61,036 bases of DNA. Source: an uncultured Dehalococcoidales bacterium. Its GTDB lineage: Bacteria > Chloroflexota > Dehalococcoidia > Dehalococcoidales > UBA2162. Below the pieces are notes generated by a model, which was given only the letters and a program-made list of their open reading frames with translations, had not been told where the DNA came from and made no database searches. A program made the position numbers and the translations under genes. The stretch lies in the NCBI GenBank assembly GCA_964489895.1, contig CAZBAN010000003.1, forward strand, positions 1 through 61,036, written 5' to 3'. Positions 27,565-55,368 of the stretch are shown in pieces (the first letter of the stretch is position 1; each line of letters begins with the position of its first letter).

Positions 27565-27919
27565 GGGGGCGCGCGGGTTCGACAGGGGAGGTATGCTACA
27601 GGATTGCAGGCTGAGGTGCCGCTAACCTCATAAAACAAGTGGCAAAAATAACTGGCGAAGAACCAGTATTAGTTGCCGCCTAATTAATTAGGCGGCACAT
27701 CCAACCTGACCTCACCCCGGCGGGTCAGGATTGGGTGACGTTCAGTCGGGGTGCCACCGCTCCGATGTCGATAAGAGTGGTGAAAGAAAAATCGGCTGGT
27801 CTGGCCGGACTCGGTCGGCAGAGGCCGGCATAGACGAGACTAAAGAGCCGGCTAAGCCTGTAGTATATTCTGGGTAGCCTCTTTTGGACGGGGAGTTCGA
27901 CTCTCCCCCGCCTCCACCA
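27565..27919 (+). ncRNA. ssrA: Transfer-messenger RNA
   Basis: The 5' GGGGGCG pairs with the 3' CGCCUCC-ACCA, with a G3-U pair. GGUUCGAC lies near the 5' end and the T-arm GGAGUUCGACUCUCCCC near the 3' end. The tag frame GGC..GCC GCC TAA (27654-27683) encodes GEEPVLVAA. The stop codon sits in a GCCGCCUAA/UUAGGCGGC hairpin. Confidence 0.9.
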
Positions 27920-28566: not shown

Positions 28567-28865
28567 AAAGTACATGGTGTCCGGTCGGCTAAATCTCCTG
28601 GACTTAATCAGAATCGCCAGGATGATACCTGGCCCTGGACTAGACTAAACAAAACCAAGCATTGTTTCAGGTGGATATTGGAGGAGCAGATTCGTACTAT
28701 GCCGATTATGACTTAACAGGGCTACCGTTATTTGGGGGCAGTATAATTATTCAGTGATTAGCTTTTACCTCCCGAAATCGTAGGGAGTGAATATTATGAA
28801 TGAGAGGGTACCATAAACTACCGAAAATCCGACGTTTACAGTACCCTTTATTATCAGGAGGGAAT

Positions 28866-30614
28866 ATGGTAACAAAAGACAGAATATACAAATGTTTAAA
28901 CCCCATCGGAATCCAGGACCCGGTTGACTTATATCCTCTGGCGCCCCGCCTTGACCGGCTTGATGGAAAAACTATCATGTTCAACATGATGGTCAACGTT
29001 GAACAGGAATTTCTCACACCTTTAGAGAAAATGCTGAGGAGTAATTATCCCGAAGTCAACTGGATCTTCAGGGAGTCAGGTCCACCGATACCCGATGAGG
29101 AGCTAAGTAATACCGATGCCCTGATACAGGGAGTGGCATTCTGACATGGTGCTATTAAAGGGCAGTTGCCCCATGCAGCGCAATTCGAAAAAGTGGGAAA
29201 ACCGGCTGTAGTTATCGTCTTCGAAGACCAGGATGAATGCCTCAAGCAGGGAGCCCTGCTCCTCGGTATTCCCCATGTGCGAAGAGCATACTGCTCACGT
29301 ACAGGGAATGGAGTTGAAGATGCCGCCCGTATTATCAAGCCGTTGATGGATGCCCTGACCTTGCCTCTGACTGCGAAAGAAAAAGAAGGCGGCAGATGGG
29401 GAGTATCTGATAATAGGATAATTTTCGAGGGAACCCTCGACGAAGCTGAAGAATTCTATGAGCGTGCAGAAAAAGTCCCCGTTCTTGGAAATGCCTATAT
29501 ATCTCTCTATACGGATGGGATGGCGATAAGGATCCCCACCGAGGAGCGGGTACAGGCGATGCTGAAAGGCACCAGCCATAAGCCGGATGAAGTGATAACT
29601 CTTCAATCCGGTCATAAACAAAGAGAAATGGGGGTCGGAGGTAAGAAGGGTACTCCGGTTCGTTTTGAGCCTCTGAAACGTACAGCTACCGTTGAAAAGG
29701 TTGCCATCAACGCCGTGATGGCAGGATGCAGACCGGAGTATATGCCTGTACTTCTGGCGATTGCTGAAGCAGGAGGCGGTGGGGGGGACGGGCGTGGTAG
29801 TCTGGGATTTTGCGTTAGTGGCCCTATCGCTAAAGAGATAGGAATGAATTTTGATGTGGGGATGCTCGGACCAGGAAATCAGGCCAACAGGAGTATCGGT
29901 CGAGCTGCTGAGCTCATGTGGTGTAATCTGGGAGGAAATATCCCGAAAGTAACCAGCTGCGGAATCATGGGTAACCCGCTTTTTAACTGCTTCCCGGAGA
30001 ATATCGATGCCCTGCCGCCGGGCTGGAAAGGGGTGAATGAAGAGTACGATTTTAAGAAGGATGAAAGCGTTATTTATGTACTTGGTATGAGGGGAGGGCC
30101 TCCCGGTTCATTAACATTCCACAGCACCGAGTTTAGTCCTGGCAGATACAGGACGCTTCAGAAAAGCGGCAGCGGCGGTATGGCCAAACGCCTCGGTAAA
30201 GAAGGAATTCCCGGTCCTCATAACTGGCTGGAATACCAGGTACCCTCTTTATGGGCGGGTAAAGAAGGAGGCTATAATTTCATAATACTTCCGGAGATGG
30301 CACAGCATCTGTACGAAGCCGGTTTTAAGTCCAAGGATGAAGTCTACCAGTGGCTCTATGAGGCCAGTTTCATGCCATTCAGCGAGTACAGGAAACACGC
30401 CTCGCCCGATTTCCGGACAGGCGGCTGGAGGGGAGTAGAAAAAACTTCAGGTAAACCCTGGAAAGAGCTGCCAGATGACTATATGGTACCGGCTGTAGGC
30501 GATCCTTATGAGAACTGCATAATCGTTGCCGGCGGCGGCGAAGAGACGTCTCACTGGGTCAATGGCCGGACGCCCAGCGCAGACCCTGCATATGGAATAG
30601 ATGTCTGGCGTTAA
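28866..30614 (+). CDS. Candidate selenoprotein, type A copy 1 (582 aa; in-frame UGA at 29142-29144 is residue 93)
   Basis: ORFs 28800-29144 and 29166-30614 are in the same frame and separated only by TGA. HGAI.GQL just after the TGA is conserved with the paralog at 53620-55368. There is no SD or ATG for an independent downstream start. RBS AGGAGGG precedes ATG 28866. Confidence 0.7.
29145..29175 (+). promoter_or_regulatory. Candidate bacterial SECIS hairpin
   Basis: CATG/CATG outer pairs. Apical stem GGGC (29160-29163) with GCCC (29168-29171), and an AGUU loop about 23 nt downstream of the UGA. Confidence 0.45.
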
Positions 30615-46004: not shown

Positions 46005-47702
46005 TTACAGCCGGATACCACAGGTGCCTTCGGCACAGGCTACGGGTTCAGGCATGCGGAGCGGTCTGGCATCCTTCTTAATTCCGGCTTTGGGAATCCA
46101 GGGGTCTATAACCACGGTCTGGAAATGAGAGAAATCGGTGGTGACCCACATCGGATTCATTTCACCGCCGACGACAATGAAGTTGAGCCTCTCTGGATCT
46201 TTAAACTGGAACTCCGTGTTCTTAACAAGCCACTCACTGAGTTTCATCGGGTCATTATAGCCTTCATCATTTTTAAGACTCTTGGCTACCAGCGGGTCGG
46301 TGAGGAACGTAAATGCTCCGCCGAACGGACCACCCAGACTCTTTATGACATCGAGCATCCGCTGAGAAGGTCCTATTCCCTGGGTGAGGACATTCCAGCC
46401 GCGGAAAAGACTTACCGTGCTTTCTTCCTTTTTATAACCTTTACGGACGTGGAAAGGCTTCCAGGGACTTTGTTCTTCGTTCTCTGCGCAGCACATGTTG
46501 TTGTAGTTTATTGTGGTCCCGGTGCTGGCTGTGAATGTAGCCCCGGGACGCATGTCACCGAAGTTTATACTCATCAGCGTCCATGCCCGACCGATAACCG
46601 AATTGGCGTAGTTTACCGGGCTCAGGGCACCGAGCCCTGAGTTCATGCCGATTTCATTCCTTACGGGACCGTTTACCACCATCATGCTGGCGAAGGAGGT
46701 GGTGGAACTGGGCAGGGAAGGTCGCCCCGATTCTCCCAGGGCTAAAATAACCGGGAAATGCTCCGGCCTGCACCCTGCCATGACGGCGATGACGGCACAT
46801 TTCTCCACCGTATATTTGAGTCTTTCCTCATGGGTGGTTACGGACATCATGCCGACGTGTTCATCCGGGGCATGGTCTGTTCCGGTAAGCATCTCCGCCA
46901 CGCGTTCCTCGGTCGGCAGGACTATCGGGAGACCATCAGTCCAGCCGTTTTCCATGAAAAGGCGATGCAGGTTTTCTTCCGTATCCGGTTCCAGCAGGCG
47001 CTCACGTTCCGGTCTTATTTGCGCCTTAAAGGTTTTTTCATTTTCGGATAAAGGCCGGGTGAGAGCGTTATCAATCTCTTCCACGAGCGGCACGCCGGTA
47101 ACCGGGTCGTTGCCTTGAATATAGCCCTTAAGGGTCTCACGGGGCACCCATCCGACCGGGTAAGGAGGGTATGTGAAGCGGAGTGCCATTCCGTGACTCC
47201 GGCAGTCGCGTTCAACATAATCGGCAAACCGGGCGGTGACGATAGGAGCTGTCGGCATGCCGTAATCGTTTTCCATCGTGCGTGAGAATTCGGCGATACT
47301 CGCCGAACAGCCGTCTCAGCCGCCGACGCCGAAGACAACGGCGTCACCGTTTTTCTTTATCTCTTCCCAGAGTTCGGGTTCGTCGGTGAACATGCTGGAA
47401 GCCTTGTTTTTCAGGACGGTCTTTACTCCGGGGCGGTTTTTTGAGAACCAGTTCTGGAGTTCCTCCAGGAATTCTCTGGCGCCGGCAAATCCTGTGCCAA
47501 CCAGGTAAAGGGTCTTGCCTTCCAGGGTGTCGAGTCTCTCCGCCATCTTCAGCGAGCTCAGATTTTCAGCAGTGTCTCTCGGCTGATACGTGGGGTCGTG
47601 GATAGCGAACATTGGTGAGTCCGCATTGAGTCGCCGTCCGAAGATGCCGCTTGGCTGACCGACCGGGTCAAGTACTGCCATTTTAGTATCTTTTATACCC
47701 AT
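46005..47702 (-). CDS. Candidate selenoprotein, type B copy 1 (565 aa; in-frame UGA at 47316-47318, motif GVGG-U-DGC)
   Basis: ORFs 47316-47702 and 46005-47276 share one frame. The 13 codons between the TGA and the first ATG (DGCSASIAEFSRT) are conserved with the paralog at 50854-52530. About 70 percent identity to that paralog by eye. Confidence 0.7.
47289..47307 (-). promoter_or_regulatory. Candidate bacterial SECIS hairpin
   Basis: On the coding strand, UUCGGCGA-GUA-UCGCCGAA begins about 9 nt after the UGA. Confidence 0.45.
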
Positions 47703-47739: not shown

Positions 47740-49392
47740 TTAATACTTGGCATATACAGGTGCCAGGTTTTTATATTTCGCCACTAACTTATCCCAGGCT
47801 TTGGGAAGCTCGATTTTCTTTGTCACGTACTCCTGCCACTGTATCCAGGCTCCTGAAGCGATATACGCACCACCCGGTCCACCGGCAACGAGGATTGTCA
47901 TGTGGTCGGTACTTGACCCGGGTGGCGGCATCGGCGGAAGCTCTCGAGAATCATCTGAACTTTGCAGTCGGAATGGTTCCATAGGTGGAGCGTGTTCGGC
48001 TATATATTCCTTTGTCTTCTGCTTGGTAAAACCTTCATCGGACAGGAATTTGGCTGTGCCCGGGGGAATAACGATTATGCACATTCCGTACGCGCGTATA
48101 TTCATGGCAATTGGGTCCAGGATGCCCTCAGCACCCACTCCCATGGGAATTGTCCATCTAAACATATTGGGGAACAGGACCGAAAGAGTGCTGTCCTCTT
48201 TTTTAAAACCTTGTTCCAAGTGGAAGGGTTCCCAGGGGCTTTCCTCCTCCCACTCGCCGATTACCATGGTGTACTTCCCCGGGTTGCCGAACGAGCCGGC
48301 GTCCTCGATTCCTTTTCGTATGCCACCGATGTTCTTGATTATCAGACCCATAGCCCGTCCAATGGCGGCGTTGGCAATGTCGCCCGGACTGAAGATTCCT
48401 ATACCGCAGTTAACCAGAATATCGTTGCGCACCGGGCCGTTTATTATCCAGAAGGGGACCCATGAGCCCTGGCTGTCCTGGTAATTATCCCACCTGGTTG
48501 CCCTTTCGGGCAGAGCCTGTACTCCGGCAATGATTACCGGCAGGTGAGTCGGTAAAGCGCCAGCCATGACGGCGTTAACGGCAATCTTCTCAACGGTAGC
48601 CTTGCCCAGACGCGGACCCATCCTGGTAACCACGTGGTCAGGCGGCAGGTCGGTCCCGGTCAGCATTTCTGCCACTGCTGCCTCGGTCGGCGGTATTACC
48701 GGCAGACCGTCACCCCATCCCCTGCGGTAAAAGAACTGGTTGACTTCATTTAAATCTCCGCGGAAGAGGATTCTCGACGGTTTTTCCGGCTCTTTCTGCT
48801 TCGGTGACTTCTCTTCGTCGGTTAAGGGCCTGGTCAGGGCATCGATGATATTATCCAGTAACGGAGCGACTCCGGCTTCGACTCTCTCCGGGCTGTCACG
48901 TTCATCAACCCATTCTTCGGAGTGAATGGAATCCCAGACGACTCTTACACCGGGCATCCCTCTGCCTGACGCCGCTGAACCTTCCTCTACCAGGTATGTC
49001 TGGTTCGTCACCGCTACCGATGGTTTGCCCATTTCCTCGGCAGCTATCGTGTTGTACACAAGGTACTTGGCACAGGTCGATCAGTTGCCGACAAGGAATA
49101 TGCCGGCATCAATCCCCTTTGCCCACTCAACGAATTCTGCCTTTTTATCGGTATCGATTACAGTGACGTTCTGGTCGGTGGAATCGAAAAGGCTGGTTTC
49201 GACGCCCGGATATCTTTCCTTCAGTTTCTCTCCGATGGTCACCGCCATCTGTTTGGATGCCTGTTTGAAGTTCTGGAAGATGCCTATTTTCTTGCCTTCA
49301 AGACTCGTTAATCGTGGTGAAATGCCTTTTAGCGGCACCGGTTCAGCCTCAGCCCAGGGGCTGAGAACCTCGTACTGGTTATTGTTACTCAT
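47740..49392 (-). CDS. Candidate selenoprotein, type C (550 aa; in-frame UGA at 49081-49083, motif LVGN-U-STC)
   Basis: ORFs 49081-49392 and 47740-49059 share one frame. Domain architecture matches types A and B (PRL..LEGK N-domain; GWGDGLPVIPPTE and VEKIAVNAVMAG in the C-domain). Confidence 0.65.
49054..49073 (-). promoter_or_regulatory. Weak candidate SECIS hairpin
   Basis: On the coding strand, GUGCCAAG-UAC-CUUG(U)GUAC (one bulge) starts 8 nt after the UGA. Confidence 0.3.
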
Positions 49393-50853: not shown

Positions 50854-52530
50854 ATGAAAGATGAAAAACTTACGGTACTTGACCCCAGAGGACAGCCCAG
50901 CGGCATATTCGGTCGGCGTGGTGAGCCTGGCTCGCATATGATGGCTATTTTCAACCCCGCAACCCAGCCCACGATGACAATCGACGAGCTAGTTAAGCTG
51001 CGTATGGCGCCCCGCCTGGATAGCCTGGACGATAAAACAATCTATCTGGTGGATACCGGATTCGCCGGCAGCCATGACTTCTTTGAAGAAGTCCAGGACT
51101 GGTTCGGCAGGAACATGCCGTCGGTAAAGACAGTGCTGCATACCAAAAAGGGCAATATGTTCGCCGACGAACCCGAATTATGGGTAGAGCTCAAGGAGAA
51201 AGCGGACGGCGTTGTCTTCGGTGTCGGCGGCTGAGACGGCTGTTCGGCGAGTATCGCCGATTTTGCCCGGACAATGGAAGGCGATTACGGTGTGCCCACC
51301 GCCCCAATCGTCACCTCCAGGTTTGCGGACTACGTGCTGAAGGACGGTCATTATCACGGGATGAATTTACGGTGGACTTTCCCTCCCTACCCGGTAGGGT
51401 GGGTACCCCGTGAGACCCTCCACGATTATGTCCAGGGTAACGACCCTATCACCGGTGTTCCCCTAATGCAGGAGATTGTTAATGCCTTAACGGAGCCGCT
51501 GACGGATGCGGAGAAAAACCCGGTAATTTCCAAGAAGCCTAAAAGACCGCGCTTGCTGGAAGCGGATACCGAGTCGAACCTCCAGCGGTTCTTTCTTGAA
51601 AACGCCTGGACCGACGGCTTACCGATAGTCCTGCCCACGGAAGAAAGGGTTGCCGAGATGCTCACCGGCACCGACCACGACCCTCAGGAAGTAGTCGGCA
51701 TGATGTCGGTTGCACCTTACGAAGAAAAGAATGAATATACAGTCGAAAAGGTAGCCGTAAATGCGGTAATGGCCGGTGCCCGACCTGAGCACCTGCCGGT
51801 AATCCTGGCAATCGCTTCCGCCCGGCATCCTTCCATACTCAGCTCCACCGGTTCTTACGGGAGTATGGTGGTGGTGAACGGACCGGTACGCAACATAATC
51901 GGTATGAACTGCGGCGTCGGTGCTATGGGACCTTTCAATTATGCCAACTCGGTCATCGGCAGGGCATGGACATTGATGAGCATCAACTTCGGCGATGCCC
52001 GTCTGGGTGATAATTTTGTGGCTACCATCGGTAATGGCAATAGTTTTGCCAACCAGTGCTGTGGCGAGAACGAGGAGAAAAGCATCTGGGAGCCCTTCCA
52101 CGTCCGTAACGGGTTCAAGCCCGGGGAGAGCGCCGTGAGCGTGTTCCGTGGCTGGAATGTCATGACGCTGGGAATCGGTGCGGCTGACGGTCTGCTTGAA
52201 AGAATAAAGAGTTTTCATGGCATGGCTCACACTTTCGTGCTCGACCCGCTGGTGGCGAAATCTCTGAAAAATGATGGCTATGACAACCCCCGCAAGTTGA
52301 GTGAATGGCTTGTCAAGCAGGCGGATTCACCTTTCCTCAGACCCGAAGACATCAATTTCGTTGTTGTCGGTGGAGAGACAAACCCCATATTTCAGACTAC
52401 TGATTACGTCTATTACAAGACAACATCAGTAGATAAGTGGATACCAAAGGGCGGGATAAAGCTTGATGAGCAGCCACTACGGATGCCTGTCGGACTGCCC
52501 AGTGCCGACGGCTCATGCGGTATTGAGTAA
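50854..52530 (+). CDS. Candidate selenoprotein, type B copy 2 (558 aa; in-frame UGA at 51232-51234, motif GVGG-U-DGC)
   Basis: ORFs 50761-51234 and 51274-52530 share one frame. DGCSASIADFART between the TGA and the first ATG is conserved with the copy at 46005-47702. RBS AGGAGAG precedes ATG 50854. Confidence 0.7.
51244..51260 (+). promoter_or_regulatory. Candidate bacterial SECIS hairpin
   Basis: TCGGCGA-GTA-TCGCCGA begins 9 nt after the UGA. GGC/GCC pairs can extend the stem across an internal loop. Confidence 0.45.
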
Positions 52531-53619: not shown

Positions 53620-55368
53620 ATGGCGGAAAAATACAAGTGTCTCAACCCCGTAGGAATCCAGAAGCCGGTGGATTTACATCCTCTGGCGCCGCGCCTGGAT
53701 ACAATCGATGGTAAGACAATCTACGTCTGTATCAATGCCGGAGGCGACCAGGATATCACGATACCCTTACTGAAGCGGTTGCCGGCTGACTACCCCAACG
53801 TTAACTGGCAGATTAAGAGGCAGTTCGGTTTCAGCGCTGAGTTAACGGATGAGGAGAAGAAAGAAGCCGATGCGATGATAGCCGGGGTAATCTGGTGACA
53901 TGGAGCTATTTGGGGACAGTTGTTCCAGGTAGCAGATGTTGAACAGGCAGGCATTCCGACGGTATCTCTTATTTATGCAGACCAGGATGAATGCTTCAGG
54001 CAGGCAGCCGTGTTAAGCGGCTCGCCCTGTTTAAGACGGATACACGTTTCCCGTACGCTTCAGGGACCCGAAGACGTTGAAGGGTTCCTGGGACCAATGT
54101 TTGACGCCTTGACACGACCTCTGACGAAAGAGGAGAGTGAGGGCGGTCGTCTGGAGCTGCCGGATGACAGAATATTGTTTGAAGGCACTCTTGAGGAAGC
54201 TGAGGAGTTCTACCAGCAGATAAAGACTTACCCCGCGCTGCGCAATAACGCCCCTATCTCACTCTACACGGACGGTCTCCCGATTGTCGTTCCCACCGAG
54301 GAACGTGTGGAAAAGATGCTGAAGGGCACCAGCCACAAACCTGATGAACTGGTTGCTCTCCAGTCTGACCGGGCCTCGTTTATGAGGGGCCCGGGGGGTA
54401 AGAAGGGCGACCCGGTAAGGTTTCAGCCCGTGCTGCGAAGAGCTACGGTGGAACAGGTAGCGGTCAATGCCGTAATGGCAGGATGCAAGCCGGAATATAT
54501 GCCTGTAGTACTGGCTATTGCCGAATCGGGTGGCGGTGGAGGTCCCGATGGTCGCGGCAGTATTGGCTATGTCGTCAGTGGTCCTATCGCCAAGGAAATA
54601 GGGATGAACTTTGATGTGGGATTACTGGGACCCGGTAACCCGGCTAACAGGAGCATTGCCCGCGCCGCTGAGTTGATGTGGCGTAACTTCGGCGATAATA
54701 TCCCGGCTGTAACCAACTGCGGTGTCATGGGGTGTCCGCTTTTTAACTGCATTCCCGAGGACCTGGACGCGCTGCCGCCGGGCTGGAAAGGCCTGAACGA
54801 GGAGTATGACTTCAGGAAGGACGAAAGTATTGTCTATACAATGAACCTGGGGAGGGGAGGCACGACCAACATACACCGTACCGAATTTTCCCCGGGCGGG
54901 TATCGGGCATTCCAGAAAAGCGGTCACGGCGGCATTGCCAGACGTCTCGGTGTCAAAGGTGTGCCCGGACCGAAGAACTTCCTTGGATACATGGTTCCCG
55001 GCATCTGGGCTAACAGGGAAGGAGGCATTACGTTCCTCTTGCTCCCCCAGATGGCTCAACACCTGTACGAGTGCGGTTTTAAGTCCAAAGATGAAGTATA
55101 CGAGTGGATTTATCAAGCAAGTTTTGTGACCATGAAGGAATACCGGACCCACTCCTGGCCCGATGTCCAGACAAACTCCTGGCTGGGGATAGAACCGAAG
55201 TCAGGCAAGCCGTATAAAGAGCTGGCGGATGATTATAAGGTACCGATGGTGAGAGACCCGTATGAGAACTGCATAATCGTTACCGGCGGTGGTGAAGAAT
55301 ATCCCCAGTGGATTGGCGCTCGCAGACCTGGCTCAAGTCCCGCTTATAATATAGACGTATGGCGGTAA
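53620..55368 (+). CDS. Candidate selenoprotein, type A copy 2 (582 aa; in-frame UGA at 53896-53898 is residue 93)
   Basis: ORFs 53542-53898 and 53920-55368 share one frame. The UGA falls at the same residue number as in the copy at 28866-30614. HGAIWGQL follows the UGA. Confidence 0.7.
53913..53926 (+). promoter_or_regulatory. Candidate bacterial SECIS apical hairpin
   Basis: GGGAC-AGUU-GUUCC, with the loop at the same distance from the UGA as in copy 1. One base pair differs from copy 1 in a compensatory way. Confidence 0.45.

Follow-up and report, generated by a model that had tools for sequence, protein, structure and literature searches.

A conserved C-AGUU-G hairpin past the in-frame UGA of two UGSC-type genes from a Dehalococcoidales bacterium is very probably the apical part of a bacterial selenocysteine insertion sequence

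Bacterial selenocysteine insertion sequence (SECIS) elements are described in the bSECISearch model (Zhang and Gladyshev, summarized in PMC13188914, Fig. 2) as an apical loop of 3 to 9 nucleotides (nt) on an upper stem of 4 to 16 bp, with a G in the first two loop positions that is usually followed by G or U, a spacing of 16 to 37 nt between the UGA and the apical loop, and a minimum free energy (MFE) of -7.5 kcal/mol or lower. In the SECIS of Escherichia coli fdhF, a 17-nt upper stem-loop lies 11 nt past the UGA, and a bulged U17 and the loop bases G23 and U24 contact SelB (PMC8659212). UGSC-containing selenoproteins, including a 'UGSC/Unknown_1' fusion, have been described from marine metagenomes (PMC2398784), and selenoprotein-rich Dehalococcoidia with 46 to 49 selenoprotein genes are present in BSepDB (PMC13326102). 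Here, we describe a hairpin with an AGUU loop that follows an in-frame UGA in two paralogous genes, designated A1 and A2 (type A), of an uncultured Dehalococcoidales bacterium. Both genes lie in a 61,036-nt stretch of contig CAZBAN010000003.1 (GenBank assembly GCA_964489895.1, positions 1 to 61,036, forward strand), referred to as the window. The hairpin is very probably the apical, SelB-binding part of a bacterial SECIS within two long-form UGSC-type selenoprotein genes. The support for this reading is good, but both the mechanism and the selenoprotein family are already known, and the case is an ordinary one; distinctive here are the type A subfamily (U-x-x-A, where U is selenocysteine [Sec]), its C-AGUU-G element, which is very short and shows no variation at all, and the clear-cut covariation.

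Each of the two genes presents as a pair of open reading frames (ORFs) split by a TGA. When the TGA is read as a residue, each ORF pair becomes one protein of approximately 580 residues, and five such genes (A1, A2, B1, B2, and C) are found in the window. The A2 frame is open through its single TGA, and homologs span both sides of it. A set of 44 type A genes was compiled, comprising seven paralogs from this genome and 37 genes from Dehalococcoidales-type metagenome-assembled genomes and metagenomes; all 44 have a single TGA, with the frame and the homology running on for approximately 490 codons past it. The present results confirm the split ORF pairs as single selenoprotein genes. The features of the two type A loci are given below, with RNA positions counted here and throughout from the U of UGA as position 1.

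28866..30614, + strand: type A1 gene; probable ATG at 28866, with another in-frame ATG upstream at 28800; stop codon TAA
29142..29144, + strand: in-frame UGA of A1 (Sec)
29160..29171, + strand: putative apical SECIS hairpin of A1, GGGC-AGUU-GCCC, pairs 19-30 to 22-27
29149..29181, + strand: possible lower helix GUGCU/AGCGC around the A1 apical hairpin (predicted only)
53620..55368, + strand: type A2 gene, a long-form UGSC-type selenoprotein gene of 582 codons; ATG at 53620, Sec codon 93, stop codon TAA
53896..53898, + strand: in-frame UGA of A2, read as Sec; 149 homologs have TGA at the aligned site, and 10 have Cys
53913..53926, + strand: putative apical SECIS hairpin of A2, GGGAC-AGUU-GUUCC, pairs 18-31 to 22-27, loop 23-26
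53905..53933, + strand: extended helix of A2, positions 10-38 (predicted), 12 bp with one bulged G and the same AGUU loop

The A1 hairpin is composed of GGGC (29160-29163), AGTT (29164-29167), and GCCC (29168-29171), and that of A2 of GGGAC (53913-53917), AGTT (53918-53921), and GTTCC (53922-53926). In both, the loop occupies positions 23 to 26 and thus starts 22 nt past the U of UGA. The original prediction, made from the sequence of the two copies, had both hairpins exact to the base and the loop about 23 nt from the U. It had also proposed that the copies differ by a compensatory change, and this change is real: GGG to GGA, together with CCC (Pro) to TTC (Phe), turns pair 21-28 from G-C to A-U and pair 20-29 from G-C to G-U, and the A-U state of 21-28 is kept in the A2 ortholog L103. 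The most stable fold of A2 is the 12-bp bulged helix (MFE of -13.5 kcal/mol for positions 10 to 42), which is folded identically in L103. As this helix retains pairs 21-28 and 22-27 of the 5-bp hairpin, the compensatory change holds in either register. The A1 hairpin alone has a free energy of -5.9 kcal/mol. Folding of 60 nt gave -12.9 kcal/mol for A1 and -16.2 kcal/mol for A2; compared with shuffled sequences, z is -2.0 for the A2 fold and 0.07 for the A1 fold. In addition, some hairpin of at least 4 bp was found within the allowed spacing at 84% of 2976 control in-frame sites from the same genes. The two-copy observation alone is not beyond chance, and its significance comes only from the alignment of the 44 sequences, whose post-UGA regions align without gaps.

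Compared with the bSECISearch model, the type A element is a stem-loop inside the ORF just past an in-frame UGA, with a 4-nt loop that reads A-G-U-U in 44 of 44 genes and a stem of 4 bp in A1 and 5 bp in A2. In all copies, the spacing between UGA and loop is 19 nt, counted from the A of the codon to the first base of the loop. The MFE over positions 4 to 51 is -7.5 kcal/mol or lower in 42 of the 44 sequences, the A1 value being not unusual relative to shuffles, and the apical hairpin belongs to the local MFE structure in 41. The pairing has covariation support at 19-30, and the host encodes SelA, SelB, SelD, and tRNA-Sec. The element differs from the model in that the apical stem of most copies is at the short end (4 to 5 bp), and in that the whole tetraloop and its closing C-G pair are invariant in the 44 genes, which is beyond what the model demands. 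In addition, 11 sequences with Glu (GAG) at codon 7 and sequence L032 reach at least 4 bp only with a mismatch or a bulged base. The fdhF SECIS likewise has an apical-loop GU approximately 20 nt past the UGA (G23-U24, against G24-U25 in type A) in bases that also code for protein. However, the two elements share no sequence similarity, most type A copies lack a bulged U, and for type A we infer SelB binding. The type A consensus, a UGA followed after 18 nt by a stem closing on C-AGUU-G, could let gene callers join split ORFs of this kind in Dehalococcoidales genomes.

Synonymous variation was compared across 156 degenerate amino acid columns that are at least 90% conserved. The codons of the loop and its closing pair are fixed, with Gln+7 encoded by CAG and Leu+8 by UUG in all 44 genes, and these are the only two of the 156 columns with zero synonymous entropy (median normalized codon entropy, 0.85). 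UUG makes up 9.7% of the Leu codons elsewhere in the same genes, while CAG already accounts for 80% of Gln codons. The codon designated codon 7 is AGG in 21 sequences, GAG in 11, GGG in 9, and GCG in 1, all of the form NNG; only A2 and L103 depart from this, with GGA opposite a U. For comparison, AGG represents 19.7% of Arg codons and GGG 13.7% of Gly codons in the background. Pro+9 is encoded only by CCC or CCU and never by CCG, which supplies 42% of Pro codons elsewhere. When changes were counted on a tree from which the tested columns had been left out, the loop codons showed none, compared with 20 at the third base of Ala+3, 12 at Glu+15, and 16 at Gly+18.

The strongest covariation sits at pair 19-30, which is G-C in 23 and A-U in 21 of the 44 sequences with no mismatches. 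Its state switched at least five times on the tree via a synonymous CCC/CCU change of Pro; as this change is synonymous, the 3' side of the covariation cannot be explained by the protein. Three independent pairs were found on well-supported branches and five on all branches, and all are concordant; one consists of the close sisters L030 (AGG...CCU) and L107 (GGG...CCC). At the neighboring pair 21-28, G-C is present in 42 sequences and A-U in two, A2 and its 84%-identical ortholog L103, so that the change first noticed between A1 and A2 is a single evolutionary event. Of all cells in the 5-bp helix, 89.1% pair, compared with 40 to 73% when the 3' partner is slid by one to three columns, and the observed covariation score was reached by none of 500 shuffles. 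A2 has a G-U pair at 20-29 and 17 sequences have one at 18-31, as fits pairing only in the sense-strand RNA.

It could be argued that the hairpin is a by-product of coding, in which a conserved Gly/Arg/Glu-Gln-Leu-Pro peptide happens to use self-complementary codons with no selection on the RNA. The abundance of hairpins at control sites, an A1 fold no better than its shuffles, a modest z score against synonymous recoding, and the general preference for CAG all agree with this explanation. Nevertheless, the amino acids dictate neither UUG, AGG, and GGG nor the lack of CCG; in all 44 sequences, over at least five switches, the third base of the Pro codon changes in step with the first base of codon 7; and flanking synonymous sites changed 12 to 20 times on the same tree. 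We therefore consider a by-product of coding very unlikely. The frozen loop codons and the covariation at 19-30, together with the Sec machinery and the agreement with the bSECISearch constraints, support the original proposal that selection acts on RNA pairing as in a SECIS, and the ortholog alignment extends the proposed covariation beyond the two copies in which it was noticed.

The genome encodes a full Sec machinery. Matches to selD (387.3 bits), selA (570 bits), selB (347.8 bits), and tRNA-Sec (68.1 bits) are all above the curated cutoffs; selD, selA, and selB are direct neighbors on contig C12 (34298-39857), and tRNA-Sec is on contig C17 (34872-34964). The selD gene itself carries one in-frame TGA, which is followed by a 5-bp hairpin with the loop CGGGC at positions 20 to 24. 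UGA terminates 239 of 951 long open frames; thus, it is an ordinary stop codon in this genome and is not reassigned genome-wide.

The other three genes of this kind in the window carry different hairpins, as follows.

47290..47306, - strand: putative SECIS hairpin of type B1, UCGGCGA-GUA-UCGCCGA; UGA at 47318-47316, gene at 46005-47702
51244..51260, + strand: putative SECIS hairpin of type B2, same sequence as B1; UGA at 51232-51234, gene ending at 52530
49053..49074, - strand: hairpin of type C, weaker, 9 bp with a bulge and the loop UAC; UGA at 49083-49081, gene at 47740-49392

The type B hairpin was located 9 nt past the UGA, where it had been predicted, with five matches compared with 0.15 expected by chance. 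The type C hairpin had been called weaker, and its local MFE is indeed -7.5 kcal/mol, compared with -12.4 and -12.7 kcal/mol for type B and about -13 kcal/mol for type A. Further paralog types encode different peptides and form different hairpins at the same distance, with the loops GGUC, GUA, GUG, and CUUGA. Over the wider family, the loop of the best hairpin starts at position 20 to 25 in 131 of 149 Sec sites, compared with an even spread at control sites. Stable hairpins whose loop is of the form.?G[GU] are present at 48% of Sec sites compared with 5% of the 2976 controls, counts that are not phylogenetically independent. In a proteobacterial clade with the peptide U-S-T-C-S-P-T-V-V-G and a GGUC loop (L059, L067, L142, L143, L145, L158, L167, L173, and L177), Pro codons CCG, CCC, and CCU pair with Val codons GUC, GUG, and GUA, a purely synonymous covariation with no mismatches in nine sequences.

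These comparisons bear on whether the conserved element could have some other RNA or DNA role unrelated to Sec, such as a ribosome pause, a site for a regulatory protein, or a DNA motif CAGTTG. Such a role would be compatible with the invariance of the whole C-AGUU-G loop, of which the SECIS model needs only the GU, and SelB binding is itself a prediction. However, genome-wide, the type A motif at this spacing was found only after the type A Sec UGA, apart from two hits outside open frames where about 1.4 are expected by chance; paralog types of unrelated sequence keep a hairpin at the same distance from the UGA; and the G-U pairs favor sense-strand RNA over DNA. A role of this sort is accordingly given little credence.

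Several results weigh against assigning the type A hairpin to a SECIS. Twelve sequences (the 11 with GAG, and L032 with GCG) can form the helix only with an A.C or C.C mismatch at 20-29 or in a bulged register; in these 12, RNAfold bulges the A and pairs UGGG with CCCA, and no variation distinguishes the registers. The A1 fold is, as stated, no more stable than its shuffles. With three to five independent pairs, the tree-aware sign test alone cannot be significant (P = 0.25 for three). No Rfam SECIS match was obtained, either at the gathering threshold or, around the site, with E values up to 10. The MFE z score against synonymous recoding averages -0.71 at Sec sites and -0.8 in 10 Cys homologs; the energy tests, by shuffling and by synonymous recoding, therefore do not separate signal from background. 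The comparison of Sec with Cys forms is uninformative as a control, as it comprises only these 10 Cys homologs, which are close kin of Sec forms, several of them still having the hairpin. Pairing in a lower helix (10-13 with 35-38) amounts to 81%; this helix is absent from the 11 Glu (GAG) sequences, and covariation at its pair 12-36 was not significant (Fisher P = 0.13; the tree-aware test likewise); it is retained only as a prediction.

Lastly, RNAalifold applied to the 44-sequence alignment misses the hairpin and proposes instead that GGUGA (the Trp codon and UGA) pairs with UUGCC (25-29), sequestering the UGA. This highly improbable fold has pairs that hold in 40 to 44 of the 44 sequences, with G-U pairs kept by two C-to-U changes in A2 and L103, but it was rejected as the functional fold, being weak (-2.47 kcal/mol) and without covariation (covariation term, 0.12; two-sided changes at none of its pairs), disrupted in A1 (UUC before the UGA) and L119 (UAC) with no compensating change, mutually exclusive with the hairpin found in most local MFE structures, and unable to explain the covariation at 19-30 and the frozen A23-G24.

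As a SECIS, the type A element would act as follows. The stem, of 4 to 5 bp in most copies and longer in some, with its invariant C-AGUU-G, would present G24-U25 approximately 20 nt past the UGA as the ribosome arrives; SelB carrying Sec-tRNA(Sec) would bind the loop and deliver Sec to the UGA in place of release factor 2, so that Sec insertion would depend on the hairpin. The same bases encode Gly/Arg/Glu-Gln-Leu-Pro, and the element would have to serve both the peptide and the RNA. Because both would constrain the same bases, stem changes come as paired substitutions, which appear to have taken two routes: synonymous changes of Pro between CCC and CCU with G or A at position 19, and, in the A2 lineage, the amino acid change of Pro to Phe with GGG to GGA. 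The element is a clean natural example of a coding sequence bound by peptide and RNA structure, in which synonymous and nonsynonymous changes are co-selected to keep a stem; knowledge of Sec decoding is unchanged by it.

A more specific and rather doubtful possibility is that the type A element is a minimal, sequence-specific SECIS, a hairpin of 12 to 14 nt whose whole C-AGUU-G is read by the Dehalococcoidales SelB. Such reading of the entire tetraloop would explain why six bases, and not GU alone, are frozen. Within a single 2-Mb genome, the 17 paralogs of this family have no fewer than six kinds of loop, and this variety might make the efficiency of Sec insertion differ from paralog to paralog. 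If this is so, recombinant selenoprotein work would gain a portable SECIS of unusual compactness.

With regard to family identity, the N-terminal approximately 160 residues of the type A proteins weakly match PF24696 (UGSC), with 25.2 bits for A1 and 21.9 bits for A2 against a cutoff of 25, so that A1 alone passes the gathering score. The match to NF041046 is far below its cutoff (16 bits versus 125), and the remaining approximately 430 residues have no match in Pfam or NCBIfam. Sequence comparison thus places type A as an apparently divergent, fused relative of the UGSC family. It shares with that family and the 'UGSC/Unknown_1' fusion the equivalent Sec site, the weak N-terminal domain match, and the fusion to a large conserved domain of unknown function. 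From genome and metagenome collections, 160 related loci were recovered. After mapping with a hidden Markov model (HMM), 149 ORFs of the long-form family have TGA at the aligned site, 10 have Cys, and seven have another residue; judged from these sequences, the mixture is the usual Sec/Cys signature, and Sec forms far outnumber Cys forms, as in the UGSC family. Type A differs in its motif, U-H/S-G/N-A, in which Ala stands in place of the second Cys of the family; the U-x-x-C redox motif, lacking here, is retained by types B and C and the other paralog types, and none of the 44 type A genes has Cys in place of Sec. As the second Cys is replaced, the redox chemistry of type A may differ from that of the rest of the family.

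An AlphaFold2 model of the A2 protein (window 53620-55365; 42 family sequences) was confident, with a mean predicted local distance difference test score of 87.8 and a predicted template modeling (TM) score of 0.90. Neither sequence profile nor fold gave a meaningful match to a solved relative of this protein, the best TM-score being 0.18 and confined to a flavodoxin-like N-terminal part. A class-wide search of 400 sampled genomes at an E value of 1e-100 or lower returned no type A genes outside this genome, a result attributable to the sampling and the threshold, as the collection scans then gave many.

The 2.03-Mb genome contains 17 long-form UGSC-type paralogs, seven of them type A, and all 17 have exactly one in-frame TGA, located at the same aligned site. 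A single uncharacterized selenoprotein family accounts for a considerable share of this small genome. Their stop codons are TAA in 11 and TAG in six, with none ending in TGA, which ends 25% of long frames genome-wide; this may reflect avoidance of UGA in Sec-decoding genes, or chance, as the paralogs are not independent. Tandem pairs of family members within a few kilobases were seen in several other genomes (L031, L043, L046, L083, L128, L131, L135, and L146), and local duplication seems to be a common route of expansion for the family. One type A ortholog, L040 (CAYOHA010000044.1), has a frameshift inside the gene: the tblastn frame meets many stops and the HMM hit continues in another frame. 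Either the locus is a pseudogene, or its assembly contains an error. Within the window, a transfer-messenger RNA gene (RF00023, 170.5 bits) is located at 27565-27919, approximately 900 bp upstream of A1.

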